64,000 nt of DNA from an uncultured Candidatus Rokubacteria bacterium (GCA_963749975.1 CAVVOZ010000009.1:8923-72922), one strand, 5' to 3'; counted from the stretch's first letter, positions 1,185-23,224 are shown. The notes: a model not told the origin generated them from the sequence alone. Translations and numbers: made by a program.

Positions 1185-1400
1185 GACGGAATCCCTCCAG
1201 TTCCTGGAACTGCGAAGCGGGAACGGGCGTCCAAGACGGCCAAGGCGGCCAAAGCGACGACCAAGGCGAATTGTAGCAAAGGGGGTTCCCGAGACCGCGT
1301 TTTCGGACGGGCGCCCCCTGGGCGCGTCCAGGCCGGTCGAGTAAGATGGTGCCCGCGGCCGCGAGCCGCGTGTGGAACGCCGCGAAGGAGGCCAATCTCT

Positions 1401-5254: not shown

Positions 5255-6574
5255 ATGGGCACGAAGTTCGACGATCCCGGGTCCCAGTCCCGCGCCTTGT
5301 TCGAGCGGGCGCGGCAGGTCATCCCGGGCGGGACCTCCAAGGCGAACTTCCACGTCCACCCGCACCCGTTCTACCTCGCCGAGGGGCGCGGCTGCCGCGC
5401 GACCGACGTCGACGGGGTCGAGCGGATCGACGCGATCAACAACTTCACGGCGCTGATCCACGGTCACGCCTTCCCCCCGCTCGTCGACGCGGTCAGCCGA
5501 CAGCTCTCGCGCGGCACGGCCTTCGCTGCGTCCACGCCCGAGGAGGTCGCCCTCGCCGAGCTCCTCGTCGAGCGGGTGGCGGGTCTCGAGCGGGTCCGCT
5601 TCGGCAACTCCGGCACCGAGGCGGTGATGATGGCCATCAAGGCGGCGCGGGCCTACACGGGCCGCGACCGCATCGCCAAGTTCGAGGGGGCGTATCACGG
5701 CTACTACGACGACGTCCAGGTGAGCTACAGCTCGCGGCCCGACGACTGGGGGCCGGACGACGCGCCGGCGAGCGTGCCCTCCTCGGGCGGCGTGCCCAAG
5801 CACCGCGTGCTCGAGACGCTGGTCCTGCCCTGGAACGACCCCGACGCCTGCGAGCGGCTCGTGACGCGCCACGCTTCCGAGCTGGCGGCGGTGCTCGTGG
5901 ATCCCCTGGCGAACCGCATGGGGTTCATCCCGCCCGCGGACGGGTTCCTCGCGTTCCTCCGGCAGCTCACCCGGCAGCACGGGGTCCTCCTGGTCTTCGA
6001 CGAGATCATCTCGTTCCGCGTCGGCTACCATGGCGCCCAGGGCCGCTACGGCGGGGATCCGGATCTGACCGCCTTCGGCAAGATCATCGGGGGCGGGTTC
6101 CCCGTCGGCGCCACCGGCGGCCGCGCCGAGGTGATGGAGGTGTTCGACCCCGGAACGCGGGGACCGCGAATCGCCTCCGGAGGGACGTTCAGCGCCAACC
6201 CGGTCAGCATGACGGGCGGGCTCGCGACGATGCGCGCGATGACGCCGGCGGCGTTCGATCGCCTGGAGGCGCTCGGGGCCCGGCTGCGCGCGCGTCTCGG
6301 TGAGGTCTTCCGGGACGCCGGCGTGCCCGGCCAGGTGACCGGCGAGGGCTCTCTCTTCCGGCTCCTCTTCACCGACCGGCCGCTCCGCAGCTACCGCGAC
6401 CTCGACCAGGCGGCCGAGGCGCGCATGGAGCGGCTCTTCCTCGCGCTCCTCGATGCGGGCGTGCTGATCCACACGACGGGGCTCGGCTGCCTCTCGACCC
6501 CGATGGGCGACCGCGAGATCGAGGAGATCGCGGTCGCCGCCGAGCGGGCGCTCGGGGTCGTCGGCCGCGGCTGA
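5255..6574 (+). CDS. class III aminotransferase, glutamate-1-semialdehyde 2,1-aminomutase-like
   Basis: 439 aa: VIPGGTSKANF…GNSGTEAVMMAIKAARAYTGRDRIAKFEGAYHGY…DEIISFRVGYHGAQ…GKIIGGGFPVGATGGRAEVM…GGTFSANPVSMTGGLATM. HemL/AT-III family hallmarks including the PLP-Lys region. Confidence 0.85.
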   Translation: MGTKFDDPGSQSRALFERARQVIPGGTSKANFHVHPHPFYLAEGRGCRATDVDGVERIDAINNFTALIHGHAFPPLVDAVSRQLSRGTAFAASTPEEVALAELLVERVAGLERVRFGNSGTEAVMMAIKAARAYTGRDRIAKFEGAYHGYYDDVQVSYSSRPDDWGPDDAPASVPSSGGVPKHRVLETLVLPWNDPDACERLVTRHASELAAVLVDPLANRMGFIPPADGFLAFLRQLTRQHGVLLVFDEIISFRVGYHGAQGRYGGDPDLTAFGKIIGGGFPVGATGGRAEVMEVFDPGTRGPRIASGGTFSANPVSMTGGLATMRAMTPAAFDRLEALGARLRARLGEVFRDAGVPGQVTGEGSLFRLLFTDRPLRSYRDLDQAAEARMERLFLALLDAGVLIHTTGLGCLSTPMGDREIEEIAVAAERALGVVGRG

Positions 6575-9220
6575 CCGCGGGTCGCCGGACCACTCCAGCG
6601 GGCGCTCGATGCTGCGGTCCGACGCGACCGTGGGCCGCCTGGTGCGATCCCGCCCCGTTCACCTCGCGCTGATCGTCCTCGTGGGGGCGGTGCTCCGCCT
6701 TTGGGGCATCCTCCACGGCCTGGCCGACGGCCTCATCTATCACGCCGACGCCCACCTCGCGGTCTGGAGCGCCTGGCACCTCCACCTCGGGGGGCCGCTC
6801 CGGGCCGCCCGGTTCGGCGGGGCGCACGGGGCCCTCAGCTGGCTCGCGCTGGAAGCGACCGACCTCGTGGGGCGGGGAGTGGGCTACCCGCCGCAGTGGA
6901 GCTTCGCGCTGATCGGGAGCGTGCTCGCGCTTCTCACCGCCGTGATGGGCACGCTGACCATCCCGGCCGTGTACGTCCTGGGCGCGCGCGCCTTCGGCCC
7001 GCGGGTCGGGCTCCTGGCGGCGGCGTTCCTGGCGGTCTCGCCGCTTCACAGCTTTCACTCCCACTACCCGTACCGCGACGTCCCCATGGTGCTGGCGCTC
7101 ACGCTCACCCTGGCGGCGTGCGTGAGCCTGGCCGCGCGTCCCGGCGCCGTCGCCTACATCGGCGCCGCCGTCGGCGCGGGCCTCACGGTCGCGCTCAAGC
7201 CGGCTGGTATGGTCGTCGCGGCGCCGCTGGCCACGGCGCTCGCTCTGGCCTGGCGCCGTCGGCGGGCGCCGTGGGTGCTGATCGCGACGCTCGCCCTCCT
7301 GCTCGTGGTCCTGGTGGGAATGAGCGTGTTCCTGACGGGTCACTCGTTCTCGCCGCTCGTGGGAGTGCGCGACAGGTGGCACTTCGCCCGGAACTTCATC
7401 ACGCGACACGGACCGACAGTCACCCACGGCACGGTGCGCGCCCTCGTGCTTCTCGGGGACTGGCTGGGGTGGCCCGCGTTCCTTGCCTTTGGTGTCGGGC
7501 TCGGTGTGGCGGTCTGGCGGCGGCAGCCCGCGGACCTCGTGCTGGCGGCATTCCTCGTGCCGGCCTTCTTTGCGGCCGCCGCCATTCCGTGGATGGACGA
7601 GCGGTTCTTCGTCTACCTGGTTCCACCGGCTGCGGTCCTGCTCGCGCGCGCCCTCCTCGGCGCGGCGGAGCGCGCCAGGAGCCGGCCGCTCGCGCGGGTC
7701 GCCGTCCTCGCGGTGACGCTGGCGCTCCTGGCCGGGGACCTCGGGCGCTCGGCCTGGCAAGGCGTTCTCCTCAGCCTTCCCGACACGCGGGCTCTGGCCG
7801 GCCGCTGGTTCGAGGCCCACGTTCCACGATCGACGCGGGTGGCGATGGAGGGGTACTTTCCGCTCGGGGTCAACGAATGGCCCCAGGCACGCTTCTTCGA
7901 GCCGCGGCGTCCGCTGCCGGAGGCGCTGGCGGCCGCGGACGTCCTCGTCACGAGCTCCCTCGAGCACGATCGGTACCTCGACCCCCGGACGAGGTCCGGC
8001 CCGGCCCTCGGGGCCTTCTTTCGAGCCCTGCCGCAGGAGGCCTCGCTCATGCGGACGCTCGCCCTCGCGCCGCTCGGCTTCGCTCATCCGAGCATCGCTG
8101 TCTACGCCACGCGTCCGCCGCGCGTGGCGGGGGCCCCGGCTCTGTTCCTGCCCCGGCCCTACGACCACACCTGGAACGGCGGCGTGGCGTTTCTCGACCC
8201 CGGCCCCTACGACCGGGATGACCGCACGCTCTTCCTCGGTGGCGCGCAGGTCCACGATGTGATCCTCGCGGGGCCGGCGGCCGTCGACGAGATCGCCGTG
8301 TTCGTCGCCAACGGGCCCGAGCCGAGCCAGGTCCGCATCGAGGTGGGATGGGCGAGCCGGCGGCGTCCGCTCGAGCCGGGGGAGTGGCGCGCCGTCCACT
8401 TCCGGCCGCGCTGGTGGTGGCCGGCCCGCCCCGTCCTCTACCGGGTGACGGTGGCGCTCCTGCCCGAGGGGCGGAGCGCGCTGGTCCAGATCCGGGCCGG
8501 GGCCCGGGAGATCGGCGAGGCGTATGCGGCGTGGAGACGCTGGGACGCTGCCGTTCCCTACCTCGAGCGAACCCTGGCGGCGCGCCCCGGCGACGGCGAG
8601 CTCCTGCTCCTGCTCGGCACGGCGTACCGTCAGCTCGGCCGGGCGGAGGACGCGCGGCGCGTCGGGGCGCGGCTCGAGGCGGAGGCGCCCGGCTACACCG
8701 CCGCCGTCCGCCAGCTGGGGCAGGGCGCGGCGCGTCCCGAGACCTGGACCCCGGCGTTCGAGCGCGCGACGGGACTCGACGCCGCGCTGCTCACGCCGGC
8801 GCTCACCCGGGAGGTGCGCGTCGACGCGATCCTCGCGCAGGGCCGGCTGGGCGGCGACCCGATGACGCCCGGCGGGGTTGCCGCGGTGTTCGAGCGCGGG
8901 ATCGACCGTCCGGGCGTGGTCCTCAACGGACCACGGGGGCCCCGGCCTCTCGTGTACCTCGCCCCGGGCGCGTACCGGGCGCGGTTCACGCTTCGCGGCG
9001 GGGCGGGCAGCGCGGGCCAGGAGAGCGCGGTGCTTCGCGTCTTCGCCGAGCGCCGGCTGTTGGTGACGCGGCCGGTCACGGCGGAGGAGCTCGGCGACGG
9101 CCGGCGCGTCGTGGAGATCCCGGTGCCCTTCGTCCACGATGGACCGCCGACGCCGATGGCCGTCCAGGTCGAGGCGACGGGGCGCGGGAGCTTCGCGGTC
9201 GACCGCGTGCAGATCGAGCC
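5452..9220 (+). repeat. tandem duplication unit, copy 1 (~3.77 kb)
   Basis: Positions 5452-9220 realign with 9248-13017 at an offset of 3796-3797. Over most of the length the copies are ~99.5% identical, differing by scattered substitutions (QWSF/QWTF, YIGAA/YIDAA, HFARNF/HFAWNF, LDAG/LEAG). Confidence 0.85.
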
Positions 9221-9227
9221 TATATAA
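6609..9227 (+). CDS. GT39/ArnT-PMT-like membrane glycosyltransferase with C-terminal TPR region (copy 1; C-terminus cut by duplication junction)
   Basis: Polytopic N-terminal half (many TM helices, [11 protein letters not shown] loop motif) and a soluble C-terminal half with TPR-like [45 protein letters not shown]. It ends IEPI* directly at the AT-rich filler. Copy 2 continues [21 protein letters not shown]. Confidence 0.6.
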   Translation: MLRSDATVGRLVRSRPVHLALIVLVGAVLRLWGILHGLADGLIYHADAHLAVWSAWHLHLGGPLRAARFGGAHGALSWLALEATDLVGRGVGYPPQWSFALIGSVLALLTAVMGTLTIPAVYVLGARAFGPRVGLLAAAFLAVSPLHSFHSHYPYRDVPMVLALTLTLAACVSLAARPGAVAYIGAAVGAGLTVALKPAGMVVAAPLATALALAWRRRRAPWVLIATLALLLVVLVGMSVFLTGHSFSPLVGVRDRWHFARNFITRHGPTVTHGTVRALVLLGDWLGWPAFLAFGVGLGVAVWRRQPADLVLAAFLVPAFFAAAAIPWMDERFFVYLVPPAAVLLARALLGAAERARSRPLARVAVLAVTLALLAGDLGRSAWQGVLLSLPDTRALAGRWFEAHVPRSTRVAMEGYFPLGVNEWPQARFFEPRRPLPEALAAADVLVTSSLEHDRYLDPRTRSGPALGAFFRALPQEASLMRTLALAPLGFAHPSIAVYATRPPRVAGAPALFLPRPYDHTWNGGVAFLDPGPYDRDDRTLFLGGAQVHDVILAGPAAVDEIAVFVANGPEPSQVRIEVGWASRRRPLEPGEWRAVHFRPRWWWPARPVLYRVTVALLPEGRSALVQIRAGAREIGEAYAAWRRWDAAVPYLERTLAARPGDGELLLLLGTAYRQLGRAEDARRVGARLEAEAPGYTAAVRQLGQGAARPETWTPAFERATGLDAALLTPALTREVRVDAILAQGRLGGDPMTPGGVAAVFERGIDRPGVVLNGPRGPRPLVYLAPGAYRARFTLRGGAGSAGQESAVLRVFAERRLLVTRPVTAEELGDGRRVVEIPVPFVHDGPPTPMAVQVEATGRGSFAVDRVQIEPI

Positions 9228-9247
9228 TATAATAATAAAACTTACGG
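9221..9247. other. 27-bp AT-rich junction filler tatataatataataataaaacttacgg between the two duplication copies
   Basis: ~10% GC in a ~70% GC context. It sits exactly between the end of copy 1 (…gatcgagcc) and the start of copy 2 (gctgatcacggtcacgcc…). Confidence 0.8.
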
Positions 9248-14061
<4,814 letters not shown>

Positions 14062-14089: not shown

Positions 14090-16030
14090 GTGTGCGGGAT
14101 CGCGGGCCGCCTGAACTTCCGCACCGGGGCGCCGGTGGACCCCGGCATCCTGCACGGCATGGGCGACCTCCTCGCCCACCGGGGCCCCGACGGCGAGGGG
14201 TTCTGGCACCAGGAGGCCGTCGGCCTCGCCCACCGCCGGCTGGCCATCGTCGATCTCAGCGACGCCGCGCGCCAGCCGATGACGGCCGAGGATCCGCGCG
14301 TCAGGGTCGTCTGCAACGGGGAGATCTACAACTTCCGGGAGCTGCGGATCGAGCTGGAATCGCGCGGACACCGGTTCCGCACGCGGTCCGACACCGAGGT
14401 GCTGCTCGCGGCCTACGCCGCCTACGGCATCGACTGCCTGTCGCGTCTCCGCGGCATGTTCGCGTTCGCGCTCTGGGACGGCGGCCGGCGCCGTCTCCTG
14501 CTCGCGCGGGACCGAGCGGGCAAGAAGCCGCTCTACTACCGGCTCGACGGCGACGGGATCGCCTTCGCCTCCGAGCCCAAGGCCTTCCTGGCGGACCCCT
14601 CCTTCGAGGTACGGCCGGACGTGGCGGCGCTGTCCGACTACCTCACGTGCCACTACGTACCGGCTCCCGGGTCGGCGTTCGCCGGCGTCCGGCGGGTCCC
14701 GCCGGCCCACTACCTGGTGGTGGAGGACGGCCAAGTGCGTCTCGAGCGTTACTGGCGCCTCCACTACCAGCCGAAGCGCCAGCTGTCGGAGACGGACGCG
14801 GTGGCGGAGCTCCTGGCGCGCCTCCGGGACGCCGTGCGCTGCCGGCTCGTCGCCGACGTCCCGCTCGGGGCGTTCCTGAGCGGAGGGATCGACTCGAGCA
14901 CCGTCGTGGCGCTCATGGCCGAGGCCGGCGCGGCCCCGGTCCGGACCTTCTCGATCGGCTTCGAGGAGCGGGAGTACGACGAGCTGCCGTACGCGCGGCT
15001 GGTGGCGCGCCGATACGGCACGGACCACCACGAGTTCGTCGTCCGGCCGGAGGCGGTCGACGTCCTTCCCCGGCTGGTCTGGCACTACAACGAGCCCTAT
15101 GCCGACTCGTCGGCGATCCCGACCTTCTACCTGGCCGAGCTCACCCGGCGTCACGTGACCGTCGCGCTGAACGGCGACGGCGGAGACGAGAACCTCGCCG
15201 GGTACCGGCGCCACCTGGCGGGCCGGCTCGCCGAGCGCTACGCGGGCCTCGCCCGCCCCCTCCAGCGGTCGCTCGCGGCGCTGCTCGCGGCCATTCCCGC
15301 GCCGGGACGCGGGATGACCTACGCGCGCCGGTTCCTCGCAGGGCTCGGCGAGCCGCCCGCCCGTCGCTACGCGCGCTGGGCGAGCCACCTCGATCCGGCA
15401 TTGAAGCGGGAGCTCACGACCGAGGACTTCCGCCGGGCGGCGGGTGACCGCGACTCCCTCGAGCATCTGACGGAGGCGTTCCGCCAGGCCGAGGGCGCCG
15501 ACCTGCTCGATGCCACGCTCGCGGGCGACGTCGAGACCTATCTGCCCGACGACCTGCTCGTCAAGGTCGACATCGCGACCATGGCGCACGGGCTCGAGGG
15601 GCGCTCGCCCTTTCTCGACCACGACGTCATGGAGTTCTGCGCCAGCCTGCCGTCCGATCTGAAGCTCCGGGGGCACACGACGAAGTACCTCTTGAAGCGA
15701 GCGGTGCGCGAGCTCCTGCCGGCCCCGGTGGTCGACCGGCCCAAGCAGGGCTTCGGCGTGCCGATCGATCGCTGGTTCCGCGGGGAGCTCCGCACCATGA
15801 TCCACGACGTGTTGCTGGACGCCCGGACGCTCCGGCGCGGCTACTTTCGCGAGCCCGTCGTGCGCCGCCTCCTCGACGAGCACGGGCGCGGCGTGCGGGG
15901 ATGGCACTCCCAGCTGTGGAGCCTCCTCGTGCTGGAGCTCTGGCACCGGATGTTCGTGGACCGGCGCCCCGCGGCGGGCCCCCCTCACGCCTCGGCCGTC
16001 GTCCGCGGGGCCGCGACCGCGGTGCCCTGA
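14090..16030 (+). CDS. asnB: asparagine synthase (glutamine-hydrolysing), AsnB/WbpS-like amidotransferase
   Basis: GTG 14090 followed by Cys2 (MCGIAG Ntn-GATase start), GGAGGAG RBS upstream. …LAHRRLAIVDLS…VCNGEIYNFRELR…SGGIDSSTVVALMAE… is the PP-loop synthetase domain. Confidence 0.85.
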   Translation: MCGIAGRLNFRTGAPVDPGILHGMGDLLAHRGPDGEGFWHQEAVGLAHRRLAIVDLSDAARQPMTAEDPRVRVVCNGEIYNFRELRIELESRGHRFRTRSDTEVLLAAYAAYGIDCLSRLRGMFAFALWDGGRRRLLLARDRAGKKPLYYRLDGDGIAFASEPKAFLADPSFEVRPDVAALSDYLTCHYVPAPGSAFAGVRRVPPAHYLVVEDGQVRLERYWRLHYQPKRQLSETDAVAELLARLRDAVRCRLVADVPLGAFLSGGIDSSTVVALMAEAGAAPVRTFSIGFEEREYDELPYARLVARRYGTDHHEFVVRPEAVDVLPRLVWHYNEPYADSSAIPTFYLAELTRRHVTVALNGDGGDENLAGYRRHLAGRLAERYAGLARPLQRSLAALLAAIPAPGRGMTYARRFLAGLGEPPARRYARWASHLDPALKRELTTEDFRRAAGDRDSLEHLTEAFRQAEGADLLDATLAGDVETYLPDDLLVKVDIATMAHGLEGRSPFLDHDVMEFCASLPSDLKLRGHTTKYLLKRAVRELLPAPVVDRPKQGFGVPIDRWFRGELRTMIHDVLLDARTLRRGYFREPVVRRLLDEHGRGVRGWHSQLWSLLVLELWHRMFVDRRPAAGPPHASAVVRGAATAVP

Positions 16031-16036
16031 CGCCCG

Positions 16037-17075
16037 GTGGGTCCCGTCGGCGTCGCGTTCGTCGTCTCGCTGGCTGTCGCGCTCGTCGCCACGCTCGCCT
16101 GCGAGCGAGTTGCCCCCCGGCTCGGGCTCGTCGTCGCGCCCCGGGCGGACCGCTGGCACCGCCGGCCCGTGGCGCTCCTCGGCGGCGTGGCGATCATGCT
16201 CGGGGTCCTGCCGGCGCTGGTCTGGGCCGGCGGCGGTCTCCGGGGTCGCCTCGCCGAGCTGACGCTCGTCGCCCTCGCGATGGGGACGGTGGGCCTCGTG
16301 GACGACGTCCGGCCGCTGCGTCCGCCGGTCAAGCTGGTGGCCCAGATCGTCCTCGCGGGCCTCCTGGTGGAGCGCGACTTCGTGCTGCGGCTCACCGGGG
16401 TGGCCGTCCTCGACGTGGTGCTGACCCTGATCTGGGTGGTCGGCATCACGAACGCGTTCAACCTGCTCGACAACATGGACGGCCTGGCTGCCGGCATGGC
16501 GGTCATCGCGGGAGGATTCCGGCTGGCCCTCTTCCTCTTCGACGGGGACCTGGCCGCGGCGACGATGACCGCAGGGTTCGTCGGGGCGGTGGTGGGCTTC
16601 CTCGTGCGGAACGCCCCGCCGGCCCGGATCTTCATGGGCGACGCGGGGAGCCTCTTCCTCGGCTTCTTCCTGAGCGGTCTCTGCCTCGTCGTCGACGCCG
16701 CGTACTACTCACGCGGGATCACCGCGGTGCTGGCGGTGCCGGTGCTGCTGGTGCTGATCCCCATCTTCGACACCACCTTCGTGACGGTCACGCGGCTCCT
16801 CCGCGGGCAGCCGGTCTCGCAGGGCGGGCGCGACCACACCTCGCACCGGCTGGTGGCGCTCGGGGGCAGCGAGGGGCGGGCCCTGGCCGTGCTCTACGGG
16901 CTGTCGATCATCGGGGGGGGCGTCGCGCTCCTCACGTACCGGGCCGATCTCGGGACGGCCGTGGTCCTCCTCCCGCTGCTCCTGGTGGGGCTGACGCTCC
17001 TCGGGATCCACCTGAGCCAGGTCGAGGTCGTGCGCGCGGGACCGGCGGCCCCCGGGCCGGGCGGCCGTCCGGCTC
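16037..17075 (+). CDS. glycosyltransferase family 4 polyprenyl-phosphate N-acetylhexosamine-1-phosphate transferase (WecA/WbpL-like); 3' end uncertain
   Basis: VGITNAFNLLDNMDGLAAG…IFMGDAGSLFLGF is the MraY/WecA family motif. There is no in-frame stop before the next gene; frame 2 stays open to 17959. The true C-terminus is near the last TM helix, so a terminal frameshift is possible. Confidence 0.7.
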
Positions 17076-17804
17076 GTGCAGGACTTCCCGTACAAGCGCG
17101 AGGTGGGATCGGTGGCCCTCGATTCGGTCCTCATCGTGGTCGCCTACTACGCGGCGTACCTCCTGCGCTTCGAGGACACATTCGCGGCCAACAAGCCCAT
17201 GCTGATCCGCACGCTGGCGCCGGTCCTCGTGTGCCAGCTCTCCGGGCTGGCCCTCTCGGGGGCGTACCGGGGGATGTGGCGATACACGGGCCTGGGGGAC
17301 GTCCTGCGGCTCGGGCGGGGGATCACGCTGGGCACCGTGGCGAGCGTCCTCTACCTCCTGTTCACGACGCGGTTCGCCGGCCTGTCGCGCGCCGTGTTCG
17401 TGCTCGACTGGGTGTTCCTCGCGATGCTGGTCGGCGCGAGCCGGGTGTCGTTCCGGCTGCTCGGCGAGGCGCTCCGGGCGCCCCGCGCGCGGCCCGGCCG
17501 GTGCTCGTCTACGGTGCGGGCGACGGCGGGGAGCTGGCGCTCCGGGAGCTCCGCAACAACGCCGCGCTCGCTCGGGACGGCGTGGGGTTCATCGACGACG
17601 ACCGGGCGAAGGCGGGCACGCGCATCCACGGGGTGCCCGTGCTGGGCCCGCTCGACGAGCTCGAGGCGCTGCTGCGGGCGCACCCGGTCGAGGAGGTCGT
17701 CGTCGCCTCGCGCAAGATCCCGACCGAGCGGCTCCGTCGCCTGGAGGCGAGCCTGCGCCGCGCACGGGGTGGTGGTGCGGCGCGCATCGATCGAACTCGA
17801 GTGA
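17076..17804 (+). CDS. membrane protein with CoA-binding Rossmann-like domain, homologous to the N-terminal module of PglF/WbpM/CapD or WbaP but lacking any catalytic domain; two frameshifts (~17485, ~17757)
   Basis: GTG 17076. VQDFPYKREVGSVALDSVLIVVAYYAAYLLRFED plus 4 TM helices are in frame 3. VLVYGAGDGGELALRELRNNAALARDGVGFIDDDRAKAGTRIHGVPVLGPLDELEALLRAHPVEEVVVASRKIPTERLRRLEA is in frame 2. The tail ACAAHGVVVRRASIELE* is back in frame 3. Confidence 0.5.
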   Translation: MQDFPYKREVGSVALDSVLIVVAYYAAYLLRFEDTFAANKPMLIRTLAPVLVCQLSGLALSGAYRGMWRYTGLGDVLRLGRGITLGTVASVLYLLFTTRFAGLSRAVFVLDWVFLAMLVGASRVSFRLLGEALRAPRARPGRCSSTVRATAGSWRSGSSATTPRSLGTAWGSSTTTGRRRARASTGCPCWARSTSSRRCCGRTRSRRSSSPRARSRPSGSVAWRRACAAHGVVVRRASIELE

Positions 17805-17876
17805 GCGTGGAGCCGCCGCCCACGCGGCGGGCGCGCGTCCGGGTCACGGGGATCGCCCCGGACACGGAGCGCGTCC
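17574..17876 (+). repeat. diverged direct repeat A (3' end of the CoA-binding-module gene plus a 35-bp segment of a UDP-sugar dehydrogenase N-terminus)
   Basis: 17574-17804 is ~85-90% identical to 20112-20342. 17842-17876 (ggtcacggggatcgccccggacacggagcgcgtcc) matches 20543-20577 with 3 mismatches. Confidence 0.7.
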
Positions 17877-17922
17877 AGGTCCTCCTCCATGACCGGCTGC
17901 GCGCTCAAGGACCGGCCCGGCG

Positions 17923-19689
17923 TCACTCGGCGGCCCGAAACAGCTCCTCGCCGCGCTGAAGACGCAGCGCAATCTGGTACGTCTGACGCAGCGCCCGCGG
18001 GGTCGGGCTGTGCGCCGCCTGGAAGCGCGCCAGGGCGACCAACGCGCGGCGAGCGGACGCCGGACGTGCGGCCTTGAGAGCCCCATACTGGCGCAGCGCG
18101 CCCTCCAGCTCCTGGTAGTCGTGGAACCCCGCGTCCTCCCGCAGGACGGCACGGCCGAGGCTCTCGATCATCGGCCGATCGTCGCGGCCGGGCCGGAGGT
18201 AGGCGTCCACGAGGCGGCCAGCGGAGGTCACCTGCTGCTCTCGATCGAGGAGCTCCAGCAGAGCCGCCGGCGCGTCGGCCGCCCCCGGCGGGACGGCGTC
18301 GACGGGCTCCTCGTCGGGGAGGCGGGTCGGCGGCACGTTCAGGAACCGATCCAGGTAGATCCTCATCGCGGCGTGGAACAGCCCGCGCGCCAGCTCGCGC
18401 GAGGGCGCTCGGAGCAGCGCCTGGTGGAGGGCGTTGCACGAGCTGAACGTGTTGTGGACGGTGTCCCAGTCGCCGAACTCGTTGCTGGTGGGGAACCGGG
18501 CGATCCGGAGGCTGCTGGCATGCGCCACGGCCTGGCCGAGCTCCGCGAGGGCGGCTCCCCGGCGCACGGCCATGAGGAGCCCGTCGACGATGGACTGGGG
18601 CTCGTCTCCCAGCAGAACCGCCACGAGTTCGTCGAATTCACCGGCGCGCAGCGGTGCTCCGCGGCTCGCCTCGTCCTCGGCGAGCGCCCCGAGCGTCTCG
18701 AAGGCGGGCTCCAGGAGGGCGGTCAAGTCGATCGGCCGCCGCCACGCGCTCCGTTCTTCGCTTCGCTCAGCGCGACACAGGCCGCTCACGACGCTCGGCA
18801 AGATCGCCGGCGCCTCGGTCCAGTCGAGATGATCCAGGAGCTCGAAGGCCTTGACGATGAAGTCCAGCGTGTGGCCGGCCTCGACGAAGTAGTGGTCGGT
18901 GACGGCCGCGAACAGAAGATCGGCCACGGCGGCCGGCGACGCCGTCTCGATGGCCGTGCGGAGCGCCCGCTCGGCGCCGTCCGCATCGCGTACCTCCACC
19001 GCGTCCCGGAACCAGGCTTTCAGCCGGGCCGGCGGTAGGCGGGTTGTGGGCAGGGGGTCGACACCGAAGCGCGGCGGCCGTCCGGCGCAGTCCTCGGCCA
19101 CTCGCACGAGCCCGTGGAAGAGCGCGAGCGGCCGCTCGTCCGCGCCCAGCATTGGCAGGACATTCGCCATCGCGGTCAGGATGCTGAGGCCGGGGCCCCA
19201 GCCGGCGGCGCGGTAGCGGGCACCGAAGCGGGCCCCCGCGCGCACGATCTCCCGGAGATCGGCGCCTCCGGCAACGAGGGCGAGGGCGGCCTTGGCCAGC
19301 CCGAGGGCGAGCTGGTCCTCCAGCCCCTGCTCGAGCCGGCGCCGCCACTGCGCTGCCAGATTACCGTCCGGGCTCACCTCGACGAACACGTCGCCGCCTT
19401 CGATGACCGTCGGATAGGGCCGCACGTCCCCCGCGAAGGGATCCAGGGTCCCGCCCGAAGCCAGGTCGAATCGGGCGTGATGCCAGTGGCAGGTCAACAA
19501 CCCGTCACGCACCGTTCCCCGGCTGAGCGGAAAGCCCATGTGCGGGCAACGGTTGTCCACCCCCCACGCTTGGCCCTCGTGCCAGAATACAGCCACGCCG
19601 TGACCGCCGGTGCTGACGATCAAGCACCCCTTCGCCTTCAGTTCGTCGACGGAGCCCGCGCGGACCAGGCGGGACTTGGCCTCACTCAT
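17923..19689 (-). CDS. Rieske [2Fe-2S] domain protein with ~470-aa C-terminal domain of unknown function
   Basis: ATG at 19689 with a GAAGGGGGG purine tract upstream. MSEAKSRLVRAGSVDELKAKGCLIVSTGGHGVAVFWHEGQAWGVDNRCPHMGFPLSRGTVRDGLLTCHWHHARFDLASGG carries the CxH…CxxH Rieske ligands. The remainder is helical with no recognised family. The track ORF 17923..20178 over-extends the N-terminus. Confidence 0.7.
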   Translation of the reverse strand: MSEAKSRLVRAGSVDELKAKGCLIVSTGGHGVAVFWHEGQAWGVDNRCPHMGFPLSRGTVRDGLLTCHWHHARFDLASGGTLDPFAGDVRPYPTVIEGGDVFVEVSPDGNLAAQWRRRLEQGLEDQLALGLAKAALALVAGGADLREIVRAGARFGARYRAAGWGPGLSILTAMANVLPMLGADERPLALFHGLVRVAEDCAGRPPRFGVDPLPTTRLPPARLKAWFRDAVEVRDADGAERALRTAIETASPAAVADLLFAAVTDHYFVEAGHTLDFIVKAFELLDHLDWTEAPAILPSVVSGLCRAERSEERSAWRRPIDLTALLEPAFETLGALAEDEASRGAPLRAGEFDELVAVLLGDEPQSIVDGLLMAVRRGAALAELGQAVAHASSLRIARFPTSNEFGDWDTVHNTFSSCNALHQALLRAPSRELARGLFHAAMRIYLDRFLNVPPTRLPDEEPVDAVPPGAADAPAALLELLDREQQVTSAGRLVDAYLRPGRDDRPMIESLGRAVLREDAGFHDYQELEGALRQYGALKAARPASARRALVALARFQAAHSPTPRALRQTYQIALRLQRGEELFRAAE

Positions 19690-19877
19690 CCGGTCGCCCC
19701 CCTTCAGGGAATGGTACCCCGACAGGACCTCACTCGGTTCCGCCCGCCCCGCGCGGCGGGGCGTCGCTTCGCGCCGGCCTCCACCCAGCCCCGGCGCGAG
19801 CCGCTGCCCGAACTCGCCACCGAGCGGTCCATCGTCCGGTGTCGGACGGACCCGGAGATCCGTTGCCCGCCACGCCG

Positions 19878-20090
19878 TTACGGACGGTCGATGGTGAGAT
19901 CCCGCCGGGCCGGGCCGATCGTCACGGTGAATCCGGCGATCAGGTCGAGGAAACTCGTGACGGTGAGCACCAGGAAGACCCCGGCCCCGGCCGCGTTGAC
20001 CAGCAGAAATTCGGTGAGGTAGGCGGCGAAGACGCCATCGTGGATTTTCCTCCACGCGGCGCTCCCGAACGGCGGCGCAGAGGCTCGCAC
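19878..20090 (-). CDS. small hydrophobic ORF (70 aa), possible membrane peptide or gene remnant
   Basis: MRASAPPFGSAAWRKIHDGVFAAYLTEFLLVNAAGAGVFLVLTVTSFLDLIAGFTVTIGPARRDLTIDRP with a TAA stop. It lies 190 bp upstream of the Rieske gene on the same strand. No family recognised. Confidence 0.25.
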   Translation of the reverse strand: MRASAPPFGSAAWRKIHDGVFAAYLTEFLLVNAAGAGVFLVLTVTSFLDLIAGFTVTIGPARRDLTIDRP

Positions 20091-20111
20091 CGCACCGTCC
20101 CTGGGCGACCC

Positions 20112-20342
20112 GGGACGTGCGGGGGTTCATCGACGACGACCGCACGAAGGCGGGCACGCGCATCCACGGGGTGCCCATGCTGGGCCCGCTCGACGAACTG
20201 GAGGCGCTGCTGGGGGCGCACCCCGGTCGAGGAGGTCGTCGTCGCCTCGCGCAAGATCCCGACCGAGCGGCTGCGCCGTCTCGAGGCGACCTGCCACGCG
20301 GAGGGGGTGTTGATGGTGCGCGCCTCCGTGCGCCTCGAGTGA
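20112..20342 (+). pseudogene. diverged second copy of the 3' end of the CoA-binding-module gene (direct repeat B, part 1)
   Basis: …GFIDDDRTKAGTRIHGVPMLGPLDELEALLGAHP / VEEVVVASRKIPTERLRRLEATCHAEGVLMVRASVRLE* is split over two frames. It has no N-terminal membrane domain. Confidence 0.5.
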
Positions 20343-20414
20343 GGAGCCGGCCGCTAACGGCGAGGCCGGCGCTTCCTTGACACCCCGCAAGGGGCCGTCA
20401 ATAATGACGCGGCG

Positions 20415-20699
20415 ATGACGAACACGGCGCCCCTGGGGGCGTTGGGAGCGCGCTTAACCGACGGACGTGCGGCGATCGGTGTGGCCGGGCACGGCTACGT
20501 GGGGCTGCCCTTGGCCGTGGAGCTTGCGCGCGCAGGATTCTCGGTCACGGACATCGCTCCGGACACGGAGCGCGTCCGGAGCGCCGGCCGGGATGAGAAC
20601 CACGTCGAGTGGCTCGTGACGCACGCCCGGCTCGTGTTCGACACGCCGAACGCCACGCGCGACGTCAGAGTGGCTCGGACCAGGGTCGTCCGGCTCTGA
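20415..20699 (+). pseudogene. N-terminal remnant of a UDP-sugar 6-dehydrogenase (TviB/WbpO/Ugd family)
   Basis: IGVAGHGYVGLPLAVELARAGFSVTDIAPDTERVRSAG matches the NAD-binding N-terminus (GxGYVGL…) of UDP-sugar dehydrogenases. It degenerates after ~60 codons and contains repeat B part 2 (20543-20577). Confidence 0.45.
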
Positions 20700-20716
20700 C
20701 CGGCGCGAGGGCGCGT

Positions 20717-21689
20717 GTGCGAGCGCTGGTGACGGGCGGGGCCGGGTTCATCGGGTCGCACCTCACGGAGGCGCTGCTCGCGGCCGGCCGCGAGGTGGTC
20801 GTCCTGGATGACCTCTCGACGGGGCAACTCGGGAACCTAGCGGGCGTGGCGGGTCACCCCCGTCTCGAGGTGGTCGCGGGGTCGGTCACCGACGAGACCC
20901 TCGTGCGGAAACTCGTGACCGGAGCCGACCTGGTCTACCACCTGGCGGCCGCGGTCGGCGTGCGGCTGATCCTCGATCGGCCGGTGGCGACGATCGAGAC
21001 CAACATCATGGGGACCGAGACCATCCTCCGGGCGGCGCTCGAGGGGCGGCCGCGCGTGGTCCTGGCTTCCACGTCCGAGGTCTATGGCAAGAACGACCGC
21101 GTGCCCCTCTCCGAGGACGACGACCGGCTTCTCGGGCCCACGACGAAGAGCCGCTGGAGCTACGCGTGCTCGAAGGCGATCGATGAGTTCCTAGGGCTGG
21201 CGTACCACCGCGAGCACGGGCTGCCCGTCACCATCGTCCGCTTCTTCAACACGATCGGACCCCGCCAGACGGGCCGGTACGGCATGGTGGTCCCGCGCTT
21301 CGTGCGCCAGGCGCTCGACGGAGGTCCGATCACGGTCTACGGCGACGGCTGCCAGTCCCGGTGCTTCACGGACGTGGAGGACACCGTGCGCGCGACGATC
21401 GCGCTCTCGCTGGCCCCCGCGGCGGTCGGCGAGGTGTTCAACGTGGGGACCACGCACGAGCTGACGATCCGGACGCTCGCCGAGCGCGTGCGCGCGCTGG
21501 CAGGCAGTGACTCACCGATCGTGCTCGTGCCGTACGACGAGGCTTACCAGCCGGGGTTCGAGGACCTGCACCGGCGCGTGCCGGACATCCGGAAGGCGGA
21601 GCGCGTGGTCGGCTACCGGCCCCGCGTGCCGCTCGACGAGACCCTCCAGCGTGTGATCGGCCATCTCCGCGAGCACCGGCCGCAGCTAG
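20717..21689 (+). CDS. NAD-dependent epimerase/dehydratase (TviC/WbpP/UXS-like extended SDR); 3' end uncertain
   Basis: GTG 20717. [36 protein letters not shown]…ASTSEVYG…YACSK…FFNTIGPRQ…GDGCQSRCFTDVED. Homology ends near …LQRVIGHLREHRPQ, but the frame has no stop until 21991. TAG at 21687-21689 is in the adjacent frame, suggesting a terminal indel. Confidence 0.7.
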
Positions 21690-21707
21690 GGAGGAGAGCG
21701 CCGCCGC

Positions 21708-22584
21708 GTGTTCGGTGCCTTGGTCGCCTCGCTCAGGCCGCGCCAGTGGACCAAGAACCTCTTGGTCTTCGCGGGCCTGATCTTCTCGCGGGGCCTCCAC
21801 GAGCCGGCGCTGGTGGCCCGCTCGGGGCTGGCATTCGCCCTCTTCTGCCTCCTCTCGGGGGGCGTGTACCTGATCAACGACGTGGTGGACGCCGAGCGCG
21901 ACCGGGCGCACCCGCAGAAGCGGCACCGCCCCGTCGCCTCGGGCCGCCTGCCCGTGGGGATCGCGCTGGTGGCGTGGGGTCGGCGTCCTGATCGGGACCG
22001 CGGCGGCCGCCTTCTTCCTGTCGGTCTCCTTCGGGATGGTGGCCGTCGCGTACGCGGTCCTGCTCACCGCGTACTCGGCAGGGCTCAAGCACGTGGTCAT
22101 CGTGGACACCCTGATCATCGCGGGCGGGTTCGTGCTGCGCGCCCTGGCCGGGGTGGTCGTGCTCGGGATCGAGCCCTCCTACTGGCTCCTCCTGTGCACG
22201 ATCCTGCTCGCCTTGTTCCTGACCTTCGGCAAGCGGCGCCACGAGCTCCTCGCGCTGGAGGCCGGCGCGACCGACCACCGCCCGATCCTGTCGGAGTACA
22301 CGCCGCAGCTCCTGGACCAGATGATCGCGGTGGTGACCGCGTCGACCTTGATGGCCTACGCGCTCTACACCATGGCGCCGGAGACGCACGTGCGGCTGGG
22401 GACGACGCGCCTGCCGCTCACGATCCCGTTCGTCCTCTACGGGATCTTCCGCTACCTCTATGTCCTCTACCGCCACGACCTGGGGGGCAACCCGTCCGAG
22501 CACTTCCTGACGGACCGGGCGCTCTTGGTCGACGTCGCCCTCTGGGGCGCGACGGTCATCGTCGTCCTCTACGTGGCGCCGTAG
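21708..22584 (+). CDS. UbiA-family prenyltransferase, decaprenyl-phosphate phosphoribosyltransferase-like; 1-bp frameshift ~21965
   Basis: GTG 21708. MFGALVASLRPRQWTKNLLVFAGLIFS…YLINDVVDAERDRAHPQKRHRPVASGRL is in frame 3. It continues …VGVLIGTAAAAFFLSVSFGMVAVAYAVLLTAYSAGLKHVVIVDTL…YVAP* in the ORF 22036..22584 frame. Confidence 0.7.
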
Positions 22585-22594
22585 CGCCCGGCGT

Positions 22595-23224
22595 CTAAGG
22601 CACGGCGACGCCGAACGCCCGCTCGAAGAGCGACCCCACGAGCCACCCGACCAGGGCGGAGCCCAGCGCGACGGAGGCGAACTCGAGGCCGGACCGCAGG
22701 AGGGGGCGGCCGGTGAGGATCCCCTTCAAAATACCCACGCCCAGGAGCACCGCGACCGAGAGCGCCCAGGAGAGGGGCAGGGCGAGCCAGCCCCCCAGCA
22801 GCACGAGGGGGGCGAGGGGAATGGCGGCACCGATGACGAAGGAGAGAAACATCACGACGCCAGCCTTCACCGGCTGGGAGATGTTGGCCGATCCGAGTCC
22901 GAGCACCTTCTCCTGGACCGTGCGGACCAGGAGCTCCCGGTGCCGGGAGAAGATCTGGACGACGCGATACGCCGAGGGGCGGTCGAGCCCTTCCCCGACG
23001 AGTGACTCGAGAAGAGCCTCCTGCGCCAGATACGGCTGGGCTGCCGCCAGCCGTTCCTGGTCGAGCAGCTCCTTCTCGAAGATCTCCTTCTCGGTCCGTG
23101 CCCCGAGGTACGAGCCCGTCGCCATGGAGACGCCGCCCGTGATGGCCGCGGCGATGCCCGTCAGGAGCACGATCGTCCGGTTCTGGGTCGCGGCCGATAC
23201 GCCGCTCAGGAGCCCGACCGTGCT
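22595..23224 (-). CDS. VIT1/CCC1 (vacuolar iron transporter) family membrane protein, N-terminally truncated/possibly pseudogene
   Basis: …[50 protein letters not shown]…GILKGILTGRPLLRSGLEFASVALGSALVGW matches VIT TM1-TM5. The region that should encode the N-terminal cytoplasmic segment overlaps the intact 3' end of the ABC ATPase gene and does not match. The nearest internal start is GTG 23170. Confidence 0.4.
   Translation of the reverse strand, partial: STVGLLSGVSAATQNRTIVLLTGIAAAITGGVSMATGSYLGARTEKEIFEKELLDQERLAAAQPYLAQEALLESLVGEGLDRPSAYRVVQIFSRHRELLVRTVQEKVLGLGSANISQPVKAGVVMFLSFVIGAAIPLAPLVLLGGWLALPLSWALSVAVLLGVGILKGILTGRPLLRSGLEFASVALGSALVGWLVGSLFERAFGVAVP

Follow-up and report, generated by a model that had tools for sequence, protein, structure and literature searches.

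A 2.2-kb island carrying a Rieske gene (R) lies between two sugar-pathway genes (X and ugd) in an uncultured soil bacterium of the Rokubacteria/Methylomirabilota, and the duplicated junction flanking it is a real recombination scar, of a fairly ordinary kind, in a cell-surface-sugar locus that is very changeable. The locus belongs to a conserved envelope-glycan operon of Rokubacteria, forming its variable part, and the ancestral gene order of that operon is PMT2/TPR, fcl-like, AsnB, gene X, ugd, epimerase and UbiA-type phosphoribosyltransferase. Besides R, the cassette between X and ugd holds the truncated gene of a small membrane protein (M'), and it is bracketed by two copies of a ~467-bp X/ugd junction segment comprising the last 77 codons of X, an intergenic hairpin, a promoter and ugd nt 1–166. 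The left copy was afterwards reduced to the pieces A1 and B1 by loss of the hairpin, the promoter and ~98 nt at the start of ugd. In the right copy, a separate in-frame deletion removed ~1,038 bp from ugd at a CGAG microhomology and so gutted the gene. Positions are those of the window, the whole 64,000-nucleotide stretch analysed (CAVVOZ010000009.1:8923-72922), and related loci are referred to by number. A sequence-only reading of the window had described the Rieske segment as an insertion at the gene X/ugd junction, and so it proves: the state is derived, with a duplicated target segment on both sides.

The duplicated X/ugd junction

Gene X (16037–17804, plus strand) combines a GT4 transferase domain with a membrane module and a CoA_binding_3 module (PF00953, Glycos_transf_4, E=1.6e-31, plus PF13727) and is predicted to be a polyprenyl-phosphate sugar-1-P transferase of the WecA/MraY-like kind, with the NCBIfam WecA and MraY models matching the intact L001 orthologue below their cut-offs. 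It shares 96.4% nucleotide identity with L008 across its first 1,530 nt. Its ancestral stop lies at 17802–17804, and the present reading frame continues to 17959.

The 3' end of gene X occurs twice on the plus strand, as its last 77 codons and stop (A1, 17573–17806) and as a non-functional copy (A2, 20111–20344). The copies are 86.7% identical over the full 234–236 nt including the TGA stop (MAFFT), in keeping with the 85–90% estimated from sequence alone, and a repeat search returned two gapless blocks: 113 nt at 91% (17573–17685 versus 20111–20223) and 68 nt at 94% (17683–17750 versus 20222–20289). Each copy has a 1-bp indel of its own, in A1 an added G near 17748 and in A2 an added, frameshifting C near 20225, and both recur in L002. 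A1 carries the L008/L009 state at 8 of 9 informative sites, and its unique substitutions are concentrated past the +1 frameshift at 17748, a pattern that marks it as the resident-type copy, under purifying selection until that frameshift. A2 is of foreign type, with the L001/L007 state at 7 of 9 sites, and 11 of its 15 unique substitutions fall at codon positions 1 or 2, so it is decaying neutrally. Divergence between a resident copy and a decaying foreign one therefore gives no date for the event, and the earlier conclusion that the event is not recent does not follow from it.

A piece of ugd follows each A copy. The 35-bp core noticed previously (17842–17876 versus 20543–20577) is identical at 32 positions, with a local-alignment score of 55 that none of 300 shuffles reached (mean 23, sd 2.9). 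The left piece, B1 (17811–17879, plus strand), is longer than this core and starts 6 bp past the gene X stop; it is a stray copy that aligns to L007 ugd nt ~99–166 at 55 of 68 positions, scoring 68 against L007 and 55 against L008, again with none of 300 shuffles reaching either value. Its counterpart B2 (~20512–20580, plus strand) lies inside the ugd remnant ORF. B1 thus duplicates a stretch that the remnant still contains, and the view of the two pieces as complementary fragments of one dehydrogenase has to be given up. Together, A1–B1 and A2–B2 bracket 17880–20110 as direct repeats of homologous target around heterologous DNA.

Between X codon ~512 and ugd nt ~195, the right copy follows the ancestral sequence collinearly. 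Downstream of A2, the ancestral intergenic region (20345–20405, plus strand) comprises a hairpin-forming stretch and then a promoter-like site, TTGACA-17-AATAAT (20377–20405), which ends 9 nt ahead of the ugd ATG, has 11 of 12 matches against 0.0 expected in shuffles, and is kept in all Rokubacteria orthologues. Because this copy runs unbroken from the X 3' end through the promoter into ugd nt 1–195, the insertion did not split ugd, as had been supposed; the gene was lost by its separate deletion. What survives is a 94-aa ORF (20415–20699, plus strand) in which codons 1–65 are fused in frame to the last ~30 codons at the CGAG microhomology (20606–20609), 1,038 nt being missing relative to the intact ugd of L003. 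The promoter, the start codon and the stop codon upstream of the epimerase were all retained.

A nucleotide-sugar dehydrogenase of this family (UDPG_MGDP_dh; TIGR03026) has N-terminal NAD-binding, central and C-terminal domains in ~430–440 aa, and the 440-aa product of L003 scores 424.9 bits on TIGR03026. The window ORF matches PF03721 at positions 2–45 only and, judged by its domain content, is a remnant and not a functional enzyme. Apart from 16 unique substitutions, its 5' part follows the L008/L009 type, and the right-copy promoter and ugd 5' end together are 87% identical to that type versus 76–77% to other lineages. Independent internal ugd deletions occur in L001 and in L048, the latter a locus without a Rieske gene.

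The next gene in the conserved ugd-epimerase-UbiA block encodes an SDR epimerase/dehydratase (20717–21690, plus strand; PF01370, E=7e-57), 95.7% identical at the nucleotide level to L003 and L008, whose stop codon is removed in the window only by a private +1 indel near 21671. The TviB- and TviC-like names given to this gene pair are loosely apt at best: ugd is a generic NDP-sugar dehydrogenase by TIGR03026, and for the epimerase LegB- and UXS-like SDR models score best, all below their cut-offs.

Contents of the island

As reported from the sequence, a convergent Rieske gene and a small hydrophobic ORF lie between the repeats, both on the minus strand. The left junction (17880–17922) consists of a 16-bp filler (17880–17895) and a 27-bp stretch of R 3' flank conserved with L001. 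R itself (17923–19689) is convergent with gene X and encodes 588 aa, with a Rieske [2Fe-2S] ferredoxin-like domain at the N-terminus (PF00355, E=5.6e-13) followed by a ~480-aa all-alpha domain. The CXH...CXXH cluster-binding motif (C48-P-H50, C67-H-W-H70) is invariant among 35 homologues, and the C-terminal domain has six invariant histidines (192, 266, 273, 439, 523 and 560) and two invariant lysines (133 and 280).

The hydrophobic ORF (70 aa, 19878–20090) is present but is not a whole gene. It corresponds to M', the surviving 3' half of M, a gene for a membrane protein of 136 aa; M' and the R-M spacer together occupy 19690–20040 on the minus strand. M is intact in L057, which is homologous to window 17917–20033 at 87.8%, and L057 M residues 67–136 match window 20090–19881 at 70% identity (tblastn, E=7e-23). 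The GC3 frame signal of the M' region fits a former coding sequence, and the remnant has no Pfam match. A right-junction filler of ~65–70 bp (20041–20110) separates truncated M' from A2 and matches no fetched locus except L002.

Comparison with related loci

At least five related Rokubacteria with the PMT2-fcl-AsnB-geneX-ugd-epimerase-UbiA arrangement have no R, from which it follows that the Rieske segment is derived. X, ugd and the epimerase are directly adjacent in L006, L007, L008, L009 and L014, the synteny that had been predicted for relatives, and four to five further loci (L011, L012, L015, L017 and L048) have the same order without R, an extra membrane-protein gene separating X from ugd in L011. 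Even L008, whose gene X, epimerase and UbiA match those of the window at ~96% identity, has no R. The sequence-only reading would also have been contradicted by a relative that combines the Rieske gene with an intact dehydrogenase, and this is partly what L003 shows, with R directly upstream of its 440-aa ugd.

The R alleles do not follow their surroundings. R is 90.6% identical to that of L001 and only 85.1% to that of L003, despite window-L003 flanks that are 96–97% identical, so the island is decoupled from its flanks. L001, L057 and L003 also have R in roughly this position, with junctions that differ: a ~10-bp repeat in L001, the only locus with such a short flanking repeat around R, and remnants of the PMT2 and AsnB 3' ends in L003.

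The whole arrangement, including both repeat pairs, recurs in L002, an independent assembly (ENA ERZ25039490 contig_46027) that is 97.2% identical to window 15000–23000, which makes a one-off mis-assembly unlikely. Elsewhere in the window is a suspicious 3.8-kb tandem duplication, 99% identical, with an AT-rich, junk-like junction (9221–9238). That duplication and private single-base indels of the long-read-error type (12913, +1 at 17047, −1 at 17487, ~21671 and ~21975) mean that the window assembly is imperfect; by comparison, the +1 at 17748 in gene X is common to L002.

Origin of the island

We lean, somewhat beyond an even chance, toward a cassette that came from a diverged lineage by homology-dependent integration, with homologous recombination then decoupling the island from its flanks. 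A circularised fragment could have entered by a single crossover, or a linear one by alternative pairing on sister chromosomes; both routes would duplicate the homologous target, and experiments have shown a tandem duplication arising when a short donor fragment recombines (PMC3784515). The copies form a mosaic: A1 is resident, A2 is foreign, and the right-copy promoter and ugd 5' end are resident (L008/L009 type) again. The abutment of an L001/L007-type A2 on an L008/L009-type promoter places a recombination breakpoint at about the right-copy X stop. B1 is nearly tied between lineages (55/77 to L007 and L003 versus 54/77 to L008), so the reciprocal mosaic predicted by a single crossover is seen for only one repeat pair of two. 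Microhomologies at the deletion joints also count in favour of this origin. Counting against it are the long-read-type indels and tandem duplication in the window. The different R junctions of L001, L057 and L003 also count against it, since they suggest a longer, multi-step history, and so does the outcome of genome, metagenome and protein-context searches for a donor with permuted junctions (ugd 5' end joined to R, or M' joined to the X 3' end), which returned only the window and L002. The second promoter copy was perhaps deleted since it would fire antisense into convergent R, a speculative point.

Among the alternatives, a much larger ancestral duplication around R (PMT2 3' end-fcl-AsnB-X-ugd 5' end, at least 5.5 kb), trimmed by lineage-specific deletions, would make A2 the leftover of a whole second gene X and derive the window, L001 and L003 alleles from one ancient allele. 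L003 lends this some substance: between R and intact ugd it has a 123–180-bp PMT2 3'-end remnant (83% to window 12955–13077 and 89% to L001) and a ~100-bp AsnB 3'-end remnant, then the X-downstream stretch and promoter, in correct order and orientation. Deletions are moreover rampant at the locus, where L001 has lost AsnB and M and ugd was deleted three times independently. We nevertheless judge it unlikely, since two full copies are seen in no locus, the 2.5–5.4 kb upstream of PMT2 in L006, L007 and L009 contains no R, and extra recombination is needed anyway because R alleles differ by 9–15% and the window-L003 flanks by 3–4%. Slightly less probable again is in-situ replicative template switching (MMBIR/FoSTeS-like) from ugd nt ~166 to an R-M template and back at X codon ~512, which would copy 2.2 kb, produce a second 467-bp interval and account for the short fillers; homologous recombination with L008-like strains would afterwards have overwritten the flanks. 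In favour of such an event are the fillers of 16 bp and ~65 bp, the left joint with its GTCC-type microhomology, and the lack of element ends; an old resident copy would also have the foreign type of A2 had replacement been confined to the functional copy A1 and the flanks. It requires at least two further recombination replacements with breakpoints exactly at the island edges, however, and the promoter and ugd 5' end abutting A2 are already of L008/L009 type.

A transposable-element or integron-cassette insertion that left the repeats as its target-site duplication is very improbable. Target-site duplications of insertion sequences and transposons are short, 2–14 bp, and the ~467-bp duplication far exceeds them; there is no transposase or integrase in the insert or among called genes within ±10 kb in L001 and L002, the insert ends (17877–17976 versus the reverse complement of 20011–20110) score 15 against a shuffle mean of 15.2 for terminal inverted repeats, and the inner flanks differ in every lineage. 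The insert was accordingly rejected as an insertion sequence or transposon. An integron cassette would call for an integron integrase and attI close by and an attC at its 3' end. The idea draws on the 2.46-kb R segment of L001, which is framed, precisely at the −35 box, by CG(C/G)TTCCTTG direct repeats of ~10 bp, on an R homologue (P0006, 87% identity) that adjoins a 72-aa Phage_integrase fragment, and on R homology between lineages that stops, cassette-like, within 10–27 bp of the ORF, and on the 3' side 6–27 bp past the stop codon. We would give equally little credence to an artefact in which a long-read metagenome assembly fused two strains, or two paralogous loci, into a chimera. The private indels and tandem duplication described above speak for it; yet both junctions, the A1 +1 and the A2 +C are all in L002 from another sample, the short-read JGI contig L057 independently joins the X 3' end, R and M, and copies 87% identical would not collapse or mis-join.

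Comparison with known systems

Homology-dependent integration finds its closest likeness in Campbell-type single crossover and alternative-pairing merodiploidy (Johnston et al. 2013, PMC3784515), in which heterologous DNA likewise lies within direct repeats of the target, the repeats can be donor/recipient hybrids, and no dedicated recombinase or element ends are needed. The present case differs in the shortness of the duplicated interval (~467 bp), in the later loss of ~145 bp from one repeat copy, and in that only one of the two repeat pairs is typed as donor versus recipient.

Homology-facilitated illegitimate recombination is established in naturally transformable bacteria. It has also been seen in E. 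coli conjugation (PMC3240628). In the island, the join of A2 to resident intergenic sequence resembles a homologous crossover, and the opposite end, made up of B1, the 16-bp filler and the R flank, has an illegitimate appearance, with microhomology; classical events of this type replace or delete recipient DNA, whereas the window event duplicates it.

R was considered and rejected as the alpha subunit of a classical Rieske non-haem-iron oxygenase: the catalytic domain of those enzymes is START/Bet v1-like with a 2-His-1-carboxylate iron site, and that of R is all-alpha. Outside the Rieske domain, R has no Pfam, NCBIfam or PDB sequence match. Compared with the atypical, questin-oxidase-like non-haem-iron dioxygenases BTG13, BruN and PaD, it is only 10% identical to BTG13, and Foldseek did not recover a link to that protein; the BTG13/BruN metal site, which binds iron, consists of four histidines and a carboxy-lysine (PMC11575538).

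At the scale of the locus, the likeness is to hypervariable O-antigen, capsule and EPS clusters: next to a conserved right block (ugd-epimerase-UbiA and beyond, with 96–97% identity between the window, L003 and L008) lies a mosaic left side rich in alleles, recombination breakpoints fall inside ugd, and pseudogenes and gene remnants are frequent. The differences are that the host is an uncultured member of the Methylomirabilota and that the imported gene encodes a redox protein and not a glycosyltransferase or sugar-pathway enzyme.

Structure of the duplicated junction

Gene X (GT4, 16037-17804) ends in one of two direct repeats, and the ~230-bp duplication described in the sequence-only reading is real: the 3' end of the gene occurs as A1 (17573-17806) and A2 (20111-20344), each ~234 bp, which match in gapless blocks of 113 nt at 91% and 68 nt at 94%, and at 86.7% over the whole repeat including the TGA stop. 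Each copy is followed by a piece of the 5' end of ugd, a nucleotide-sugar dehydrogenase gene. The shared 35 bp (17842-17876 versus 20543-20577) agree at 32/35 positions; their local alignment scores 55, where shuffles average 23 and 0/300 come as high. The left-hand piece, B1, is longer than first reported, as 17811-17879 aligns with nt ~99-166 of the intact orthologue at 55/68 positions; a reading of 17811-17836 as a diverged form of the hairpin downstream of X was dropped because this stretch aligns better as ugd nt ~99-125.

By aligning both window copies to the ancestral X-3'end/intergenic/ugd-5' sequence, we found that the right-hand copy (20111-20609) is collinear with it from end to end, running from the last 77 codons of X through a stretch able to form a hairpin and a promoter-like site to ugd nt 1-195. 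The left-hand copy consists of A1, 6 bp and B1, and lacks about 145 bp in which hairpin, promoter and the opening ~98 nt of ugd would lie. The promoter-like site, TTGACA-17-AATAAT (20377-20405), has 11/12 consensus matches where shuffles are expected to give none, ends 9 nt 5' of the ugd ATG and is kept in every orthologue. This near-consensus promoter of sigma-70 type is shared by the window, L001, L003, L006-L009 and L014 across Rokubacteria species, and its position implies that the ugd-E-UbiA transcript would be leaderless or nearly so. An Rfam scan of 15000-23000 at E<=0.1 returned nothing.

The two copies are separated by an insert (17880-20110) that starts with 16 bp of filler and a conserved 3' flank of R (27 bp), continues with R, a 188-bp spacer and a small ORF region, and closes with ~65-70 bp of filler. 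As the sequence-only reading proposed, it holds a Rieske-domain gene (R, 17923-19689, 588 aa) and a small hydrophobic ORF (19878-20090, 70 aa), both on the minus strand. The insert bears no mobile-element hallmarks, with no terminal inverted repeats at its ends and no transposase or integrase genes within it, nor within 10 kb in L001 and in the sister assembly L002. A short-read JGI contig whose R is 91% identical at the amino acid level (L057) is homologous to window 17917-20033 and reveals the hydrophobic ORF to be truncated (M'): in L057 R is preceded by M, a complete membrane-protein gene of 136 aa, and the ORF corresponds to its 3' half (residues 67-136, 70% identity). The M protein has no Pfam match, and M was found in no other R locus. 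Searches with window 19700-20110 and the 384-bp and 290-bp R flanks of L001 against all fetched loci (blastn, tblastx) matched only L002 and, later, L057. A reading of the L057 left flank as a degenerate promoter and ugd start was dropped, since its alignment score does not exceed that of shuffles.

Ancestral gene order and recurrent loss of ugd

Named matches and related loci assign the window to Candidatus Rokubacteria/Methylomirabilota. Species-representative genomes were scanned with the intact L003 dehydrogenase as query, and matches were placed by tblastn. The scan uncovered a conserved co-directional cluster, P-F-N-X-ugd-E-U, encoding a PMT_2/TPR glycosyltransferase (P), an fcl-like SDR (F), an asparagine synthase (N), a GT4 WecA-like protein with CoA_binding_3 (X), a nucleotide-sugar dehydrogenase (ugd), an SDR epimerase/dehydratase (E) and a UbiA-family decaprenyl-phosphate phosphoribosyltransferase-like protein (U). 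In L006, L007, L008, L009 and L014, ugd directly follows X without a Rieske gene, and the order X-ugd-E without this gene also occurs in L011, L012, L015, L017 and L048; in L011, X and ugd are separated by an extra membrane-protein gene, again with the Rieske gene absent. Nucleotide identity between the window and L008 is 96.4% for X, 95.8% for E and 96.3% for U. Given these relatives, including one that is ~96% identical, a Rieske gene between X and ugd is the derived state, which bears out the proposal that the segment was inserted at this junction. On the sequences compared, its presence is polymorphic among very close relatives.

The additional L011 gene (8154-10001), from a more distant Rokubacteria genome, encodes a 615-aa multi-pass membrane protein and is another sign that the X/ugd junction is a preferred site of gene gain. 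U (21708-22598) closes the operon; its L001 orthologue scores 281 bits against the NCBIfam cut-off of 234 for decaprenyl-phosphate phosphoribosyltransferase, and this match suggests a lipid-linked pentose (arabinan-type) branch in the glycan pathway. The E-U spacer holds a ~11-bp tandem unit (GGCCACGGCTA-like) whose copies differ between close relatives, with about 1 in the window (~21685-21700), about 5 in L008 (~6450-6510) and about 3 in L003 (~6330-6370).

The insertion had been thought to interrupt ugd and leave it in two fragments, and neither part of this account holds. The right-hand copy is collinear through ugd nt 195, and a separate deletion follows: compared with the intact gene of L003, the window ugd lacks 1,038 nt (346 codons, in frame), and the deletion joint, ...CACGTCGAG abutting TGGCTCGTG..., falls within a CGAG microhomology at 20606-20609. 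The remnant ORF (20415-20699, plus strand) covers no more than the first ~45 positions of the model for the NAD-binding domain. Because the B1 stretch is also present inside this remnant, as B2, the two ugd pieces are not complementary. Synteny gave a divided answer: relatives with X-ugd-E and no Rieske gene were found as predicted, but in L003 R lies immediately upstream of an intact 440-aa ugd, divergently oriented. In L001, R separates X from a ugd remnant that arose by a different deletion (codons ~30-315 gone), and L048 (X-ugd'-E) carries yet another internal ugd deletion with R absent. Three separate internal deletions are thus found in three lineages (L001 9138-9709, L048 10001-10498, window 20415-20699), all of which spare the promoter, the start codon and the 3' end adjoining the epimerase gene. 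The intact gene beside R in L003, together with the deletions in L001 and L048, indicates that ugd loss is recurrent and independent of R. L003 has also lost fcl, most of AsnB and all of X between R and ugd, and at 8709-8993, within its 350-bp R-ugd spacer, are 3'-end remnants of PMT_2 (83-89% identity) and AsnB (~75%).

Lineage of the repeats

Divergence between the repeats had been read as a sign of an old event, a conclusion that site-by-site typing undercuts. A1 carries L008/L009 states at 8/9 informative sites, and A2 carries L001/L007 states at 7/9. A2 has 15 substitutions absent from every reference, 11 of them at codon positions 1 or 2, a pattern that on this count is that of a non-coding remnant. 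The unique changes of A1 cluster 3' of a +1 frameshift at 17748 that is also present in L002 and gives X a different set of 19 final codons. The case cautions that divergence of flanking repeats can stem from different lineage origins and neutral decay, not from age.

The promoter and ugd 5' end of the right-hand copy are of L008/L009 type (87% versus 76-77% for other lineages, with 16 unique substitutions), and as the adjacent A2 is of foreign type, the right-hand copy switches lineage type near the X stop. The R gene shares 90.6% identity with that of L001 and 85.1% with that of L003, yet E and U are 96-97% identical between the window and L003; on these alignments the island (R, M' and A2) has a history that differs from that of its flanks. 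B1 matches L007 and L003 at 55/77 positions and L008 at 54/77, and its assignment to a foreign type was dropped as ambiguous after the references had all been compared on one set of columns. In L002 (repeats at 11889-12123 and 9347-9582), A1 has A2-type bases at seven sites and A2 has A1-type bases at three, which suggests gene conversion between the A copies, or else cross-talk in polishing through reads mapped to the wrong copy.

Proposed mechanism of integration

The best-supported reading is homology-dependent duplicative integration of a foreign R-M' fragment. The fragment may have been circularised and integrated by a Campbell-type single crossover, or it may have been linear and captured by interchromatid 'alternative pairing', which has been demonstrated by experiment for pneumococcal merodiploids (PMC3784515); either route would have duplicated a ~467-bp target and produced hybrid repeats. 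A microhomology deletion later removed the promoter-bearing part of the left-hand copy, and ugd underwent its own, separate deletion. The comparisons show the older gene order, the duplication, the collinear right-hand copy, the separate ugd deletion, the truncated M, the lack of mobile-element hallmarks and the differing histories of island and flanks; we infer the mode of integration and the donor, and likewise any selective reason for loss of the second promoter.

The junctions of R in other lineages argue against a simple one-step story. The 2.46-kb R segment of L001 has lost M and sits precisely at the -35 box between the two copies of a ~10-bp repeat, CG(C/G)TTCCTTG. In L003, the stretch from R to ugd holds what is left of the 3' ends of PMT_2 and AsnB, in that order. 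These differing junctions leave room for a rival reading, a much larger duplication trimmed differently in each lineage. A template switch whose flanks were overwritten later is another possible route. A tandem duplication with R originally upstream of PMT2 was rejected, as there is no R in the 2.5-5.4 kb upstream in L006, L007 and L009; the L003 remnants keep the larger duplication alive in modified form.

The event at this junction is an instance of an already known kind, the recombinational remodelling of a hypervariable glycan locus. The scar records base by base how a surface-glycan locus is remodelled in an uncultured soil phylum: the arrival of a foreign gene left its target duplicated, the promoter copy that had become redundant disappeared, and microhomology deletions repeatedly disabled ugd in independent events while leaving the promoter of the downstream operon intact. 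Within a group of ~96% identity, three structural alleles stand side by side.

A Rieske-fusion protein family

The R protein family is a more consequential lead than the scar. R carries a CXH...CXXH motif, and its matches to Pfam, NCBIfam and PDB are limited to the first ~105 residues. An AlphaFold2 model built from 35 homologues (pLDDT 88, pTM 0.89) predicts an all-alpha domain at residues 111-578. An exact-sequence look-up of the window protein found no record, and a literature search for Rieske and DUF4243 returned no papers. Homologues number in the thousands, in soil Rokubacteria and Chloroflexota, and the family is without a characterised member. Across lineages, homology extends no more than 10 bp beyond the ORF on its upstream side and 27 bp on its downstream side. 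One speculative and rather improbable reading is that R represents an undescribed, self-contained oxygenase class linked to glycan clusters, in which a Rieske [2Fe-2S] domain is fused to an all-alpha BTG13/PaD-like non-haem-iron dioxygenase and which, in Rokubacteria, may move as a cassette among envelope-glycan clusters. On the same reading, its placement in such clusters and its overlaps with glycosyltransferase genes raise the prospect that R could oxidise a glycan or a lipid-linked intermediate.

Among close relatives (at least 78% identity), R is part of a glycan cluster or adjoins one in the window, L001, L003, L004, L057, L053/54 and L137, and outside them in L055 and the contig of the homologue P0006. 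The R start overlaps the upstream glycosyltransferase gene by 13 bp in L053 (5598-7403) and L054 (1919-3724), and in L137 (1269-3038) it is the R stop that shares 4 bp with a GT2 gene downstream; this arrangement hints at co-expression with glycan genes. A general association of R with these glycan genes was rejected, as cluster genes are near R in only 2/84 more distant loci and away from it in 82/84, making the link clade-specific. P0006 itself is a Rieske homologue of 87% identity on a contig (JGI 3300056388; genes 485-703 and 1301-3127) where a Phage_integrase fragment of 72 aa precedes it by 600 bp and the surroundings (glyoxalase, cellulase) are not those of a glycan cluster.

Assembly support and consensus quality

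L002 (ENA ERZ25039490) was assembled independently from a different sample and agrees with the window at 97.2% over 8 kb. It reproduces the repeats, the junctions and both indels within A1 and A2, and a one-off mis-assembly is unlikely. Contigs related to the window bear names in the style of long-read metagenomes. Single-base indels private to the window occur at 12913, 17047, 17487, ~21671 and ~21975, hitting PMT_2 copy 2, gene X (+1 then -1, which shifts the frame of 147 codons), the stop codon of the epimerase gene and the gene for UbiA. As they are absent from L002, L003 and L008, they are probably consensus errors, and window-private frameshifts should not be taken as pseudogenisation; only the +1 at 17748 and a +C near 20225 are common to L002.

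The window also contains a 3.78-kb tandem direct duplication (5441-9220 and 9239-13017; 99.0% identical, with 31 mismatches and 7 gaps) of the 3' two-thirds of a class-III aminotransferase gene and the whole PMT_2/TPR gene. The copies are joined at 9221-9238 by an AT-rich string (CTATATAATATAATAATAAAACTTACGG...) in a genome of 72-75% GC, and L002 has a single copy of the unit. The duplication is either very recent, with filler DNA at its joint, or a long-read assembly artefact.
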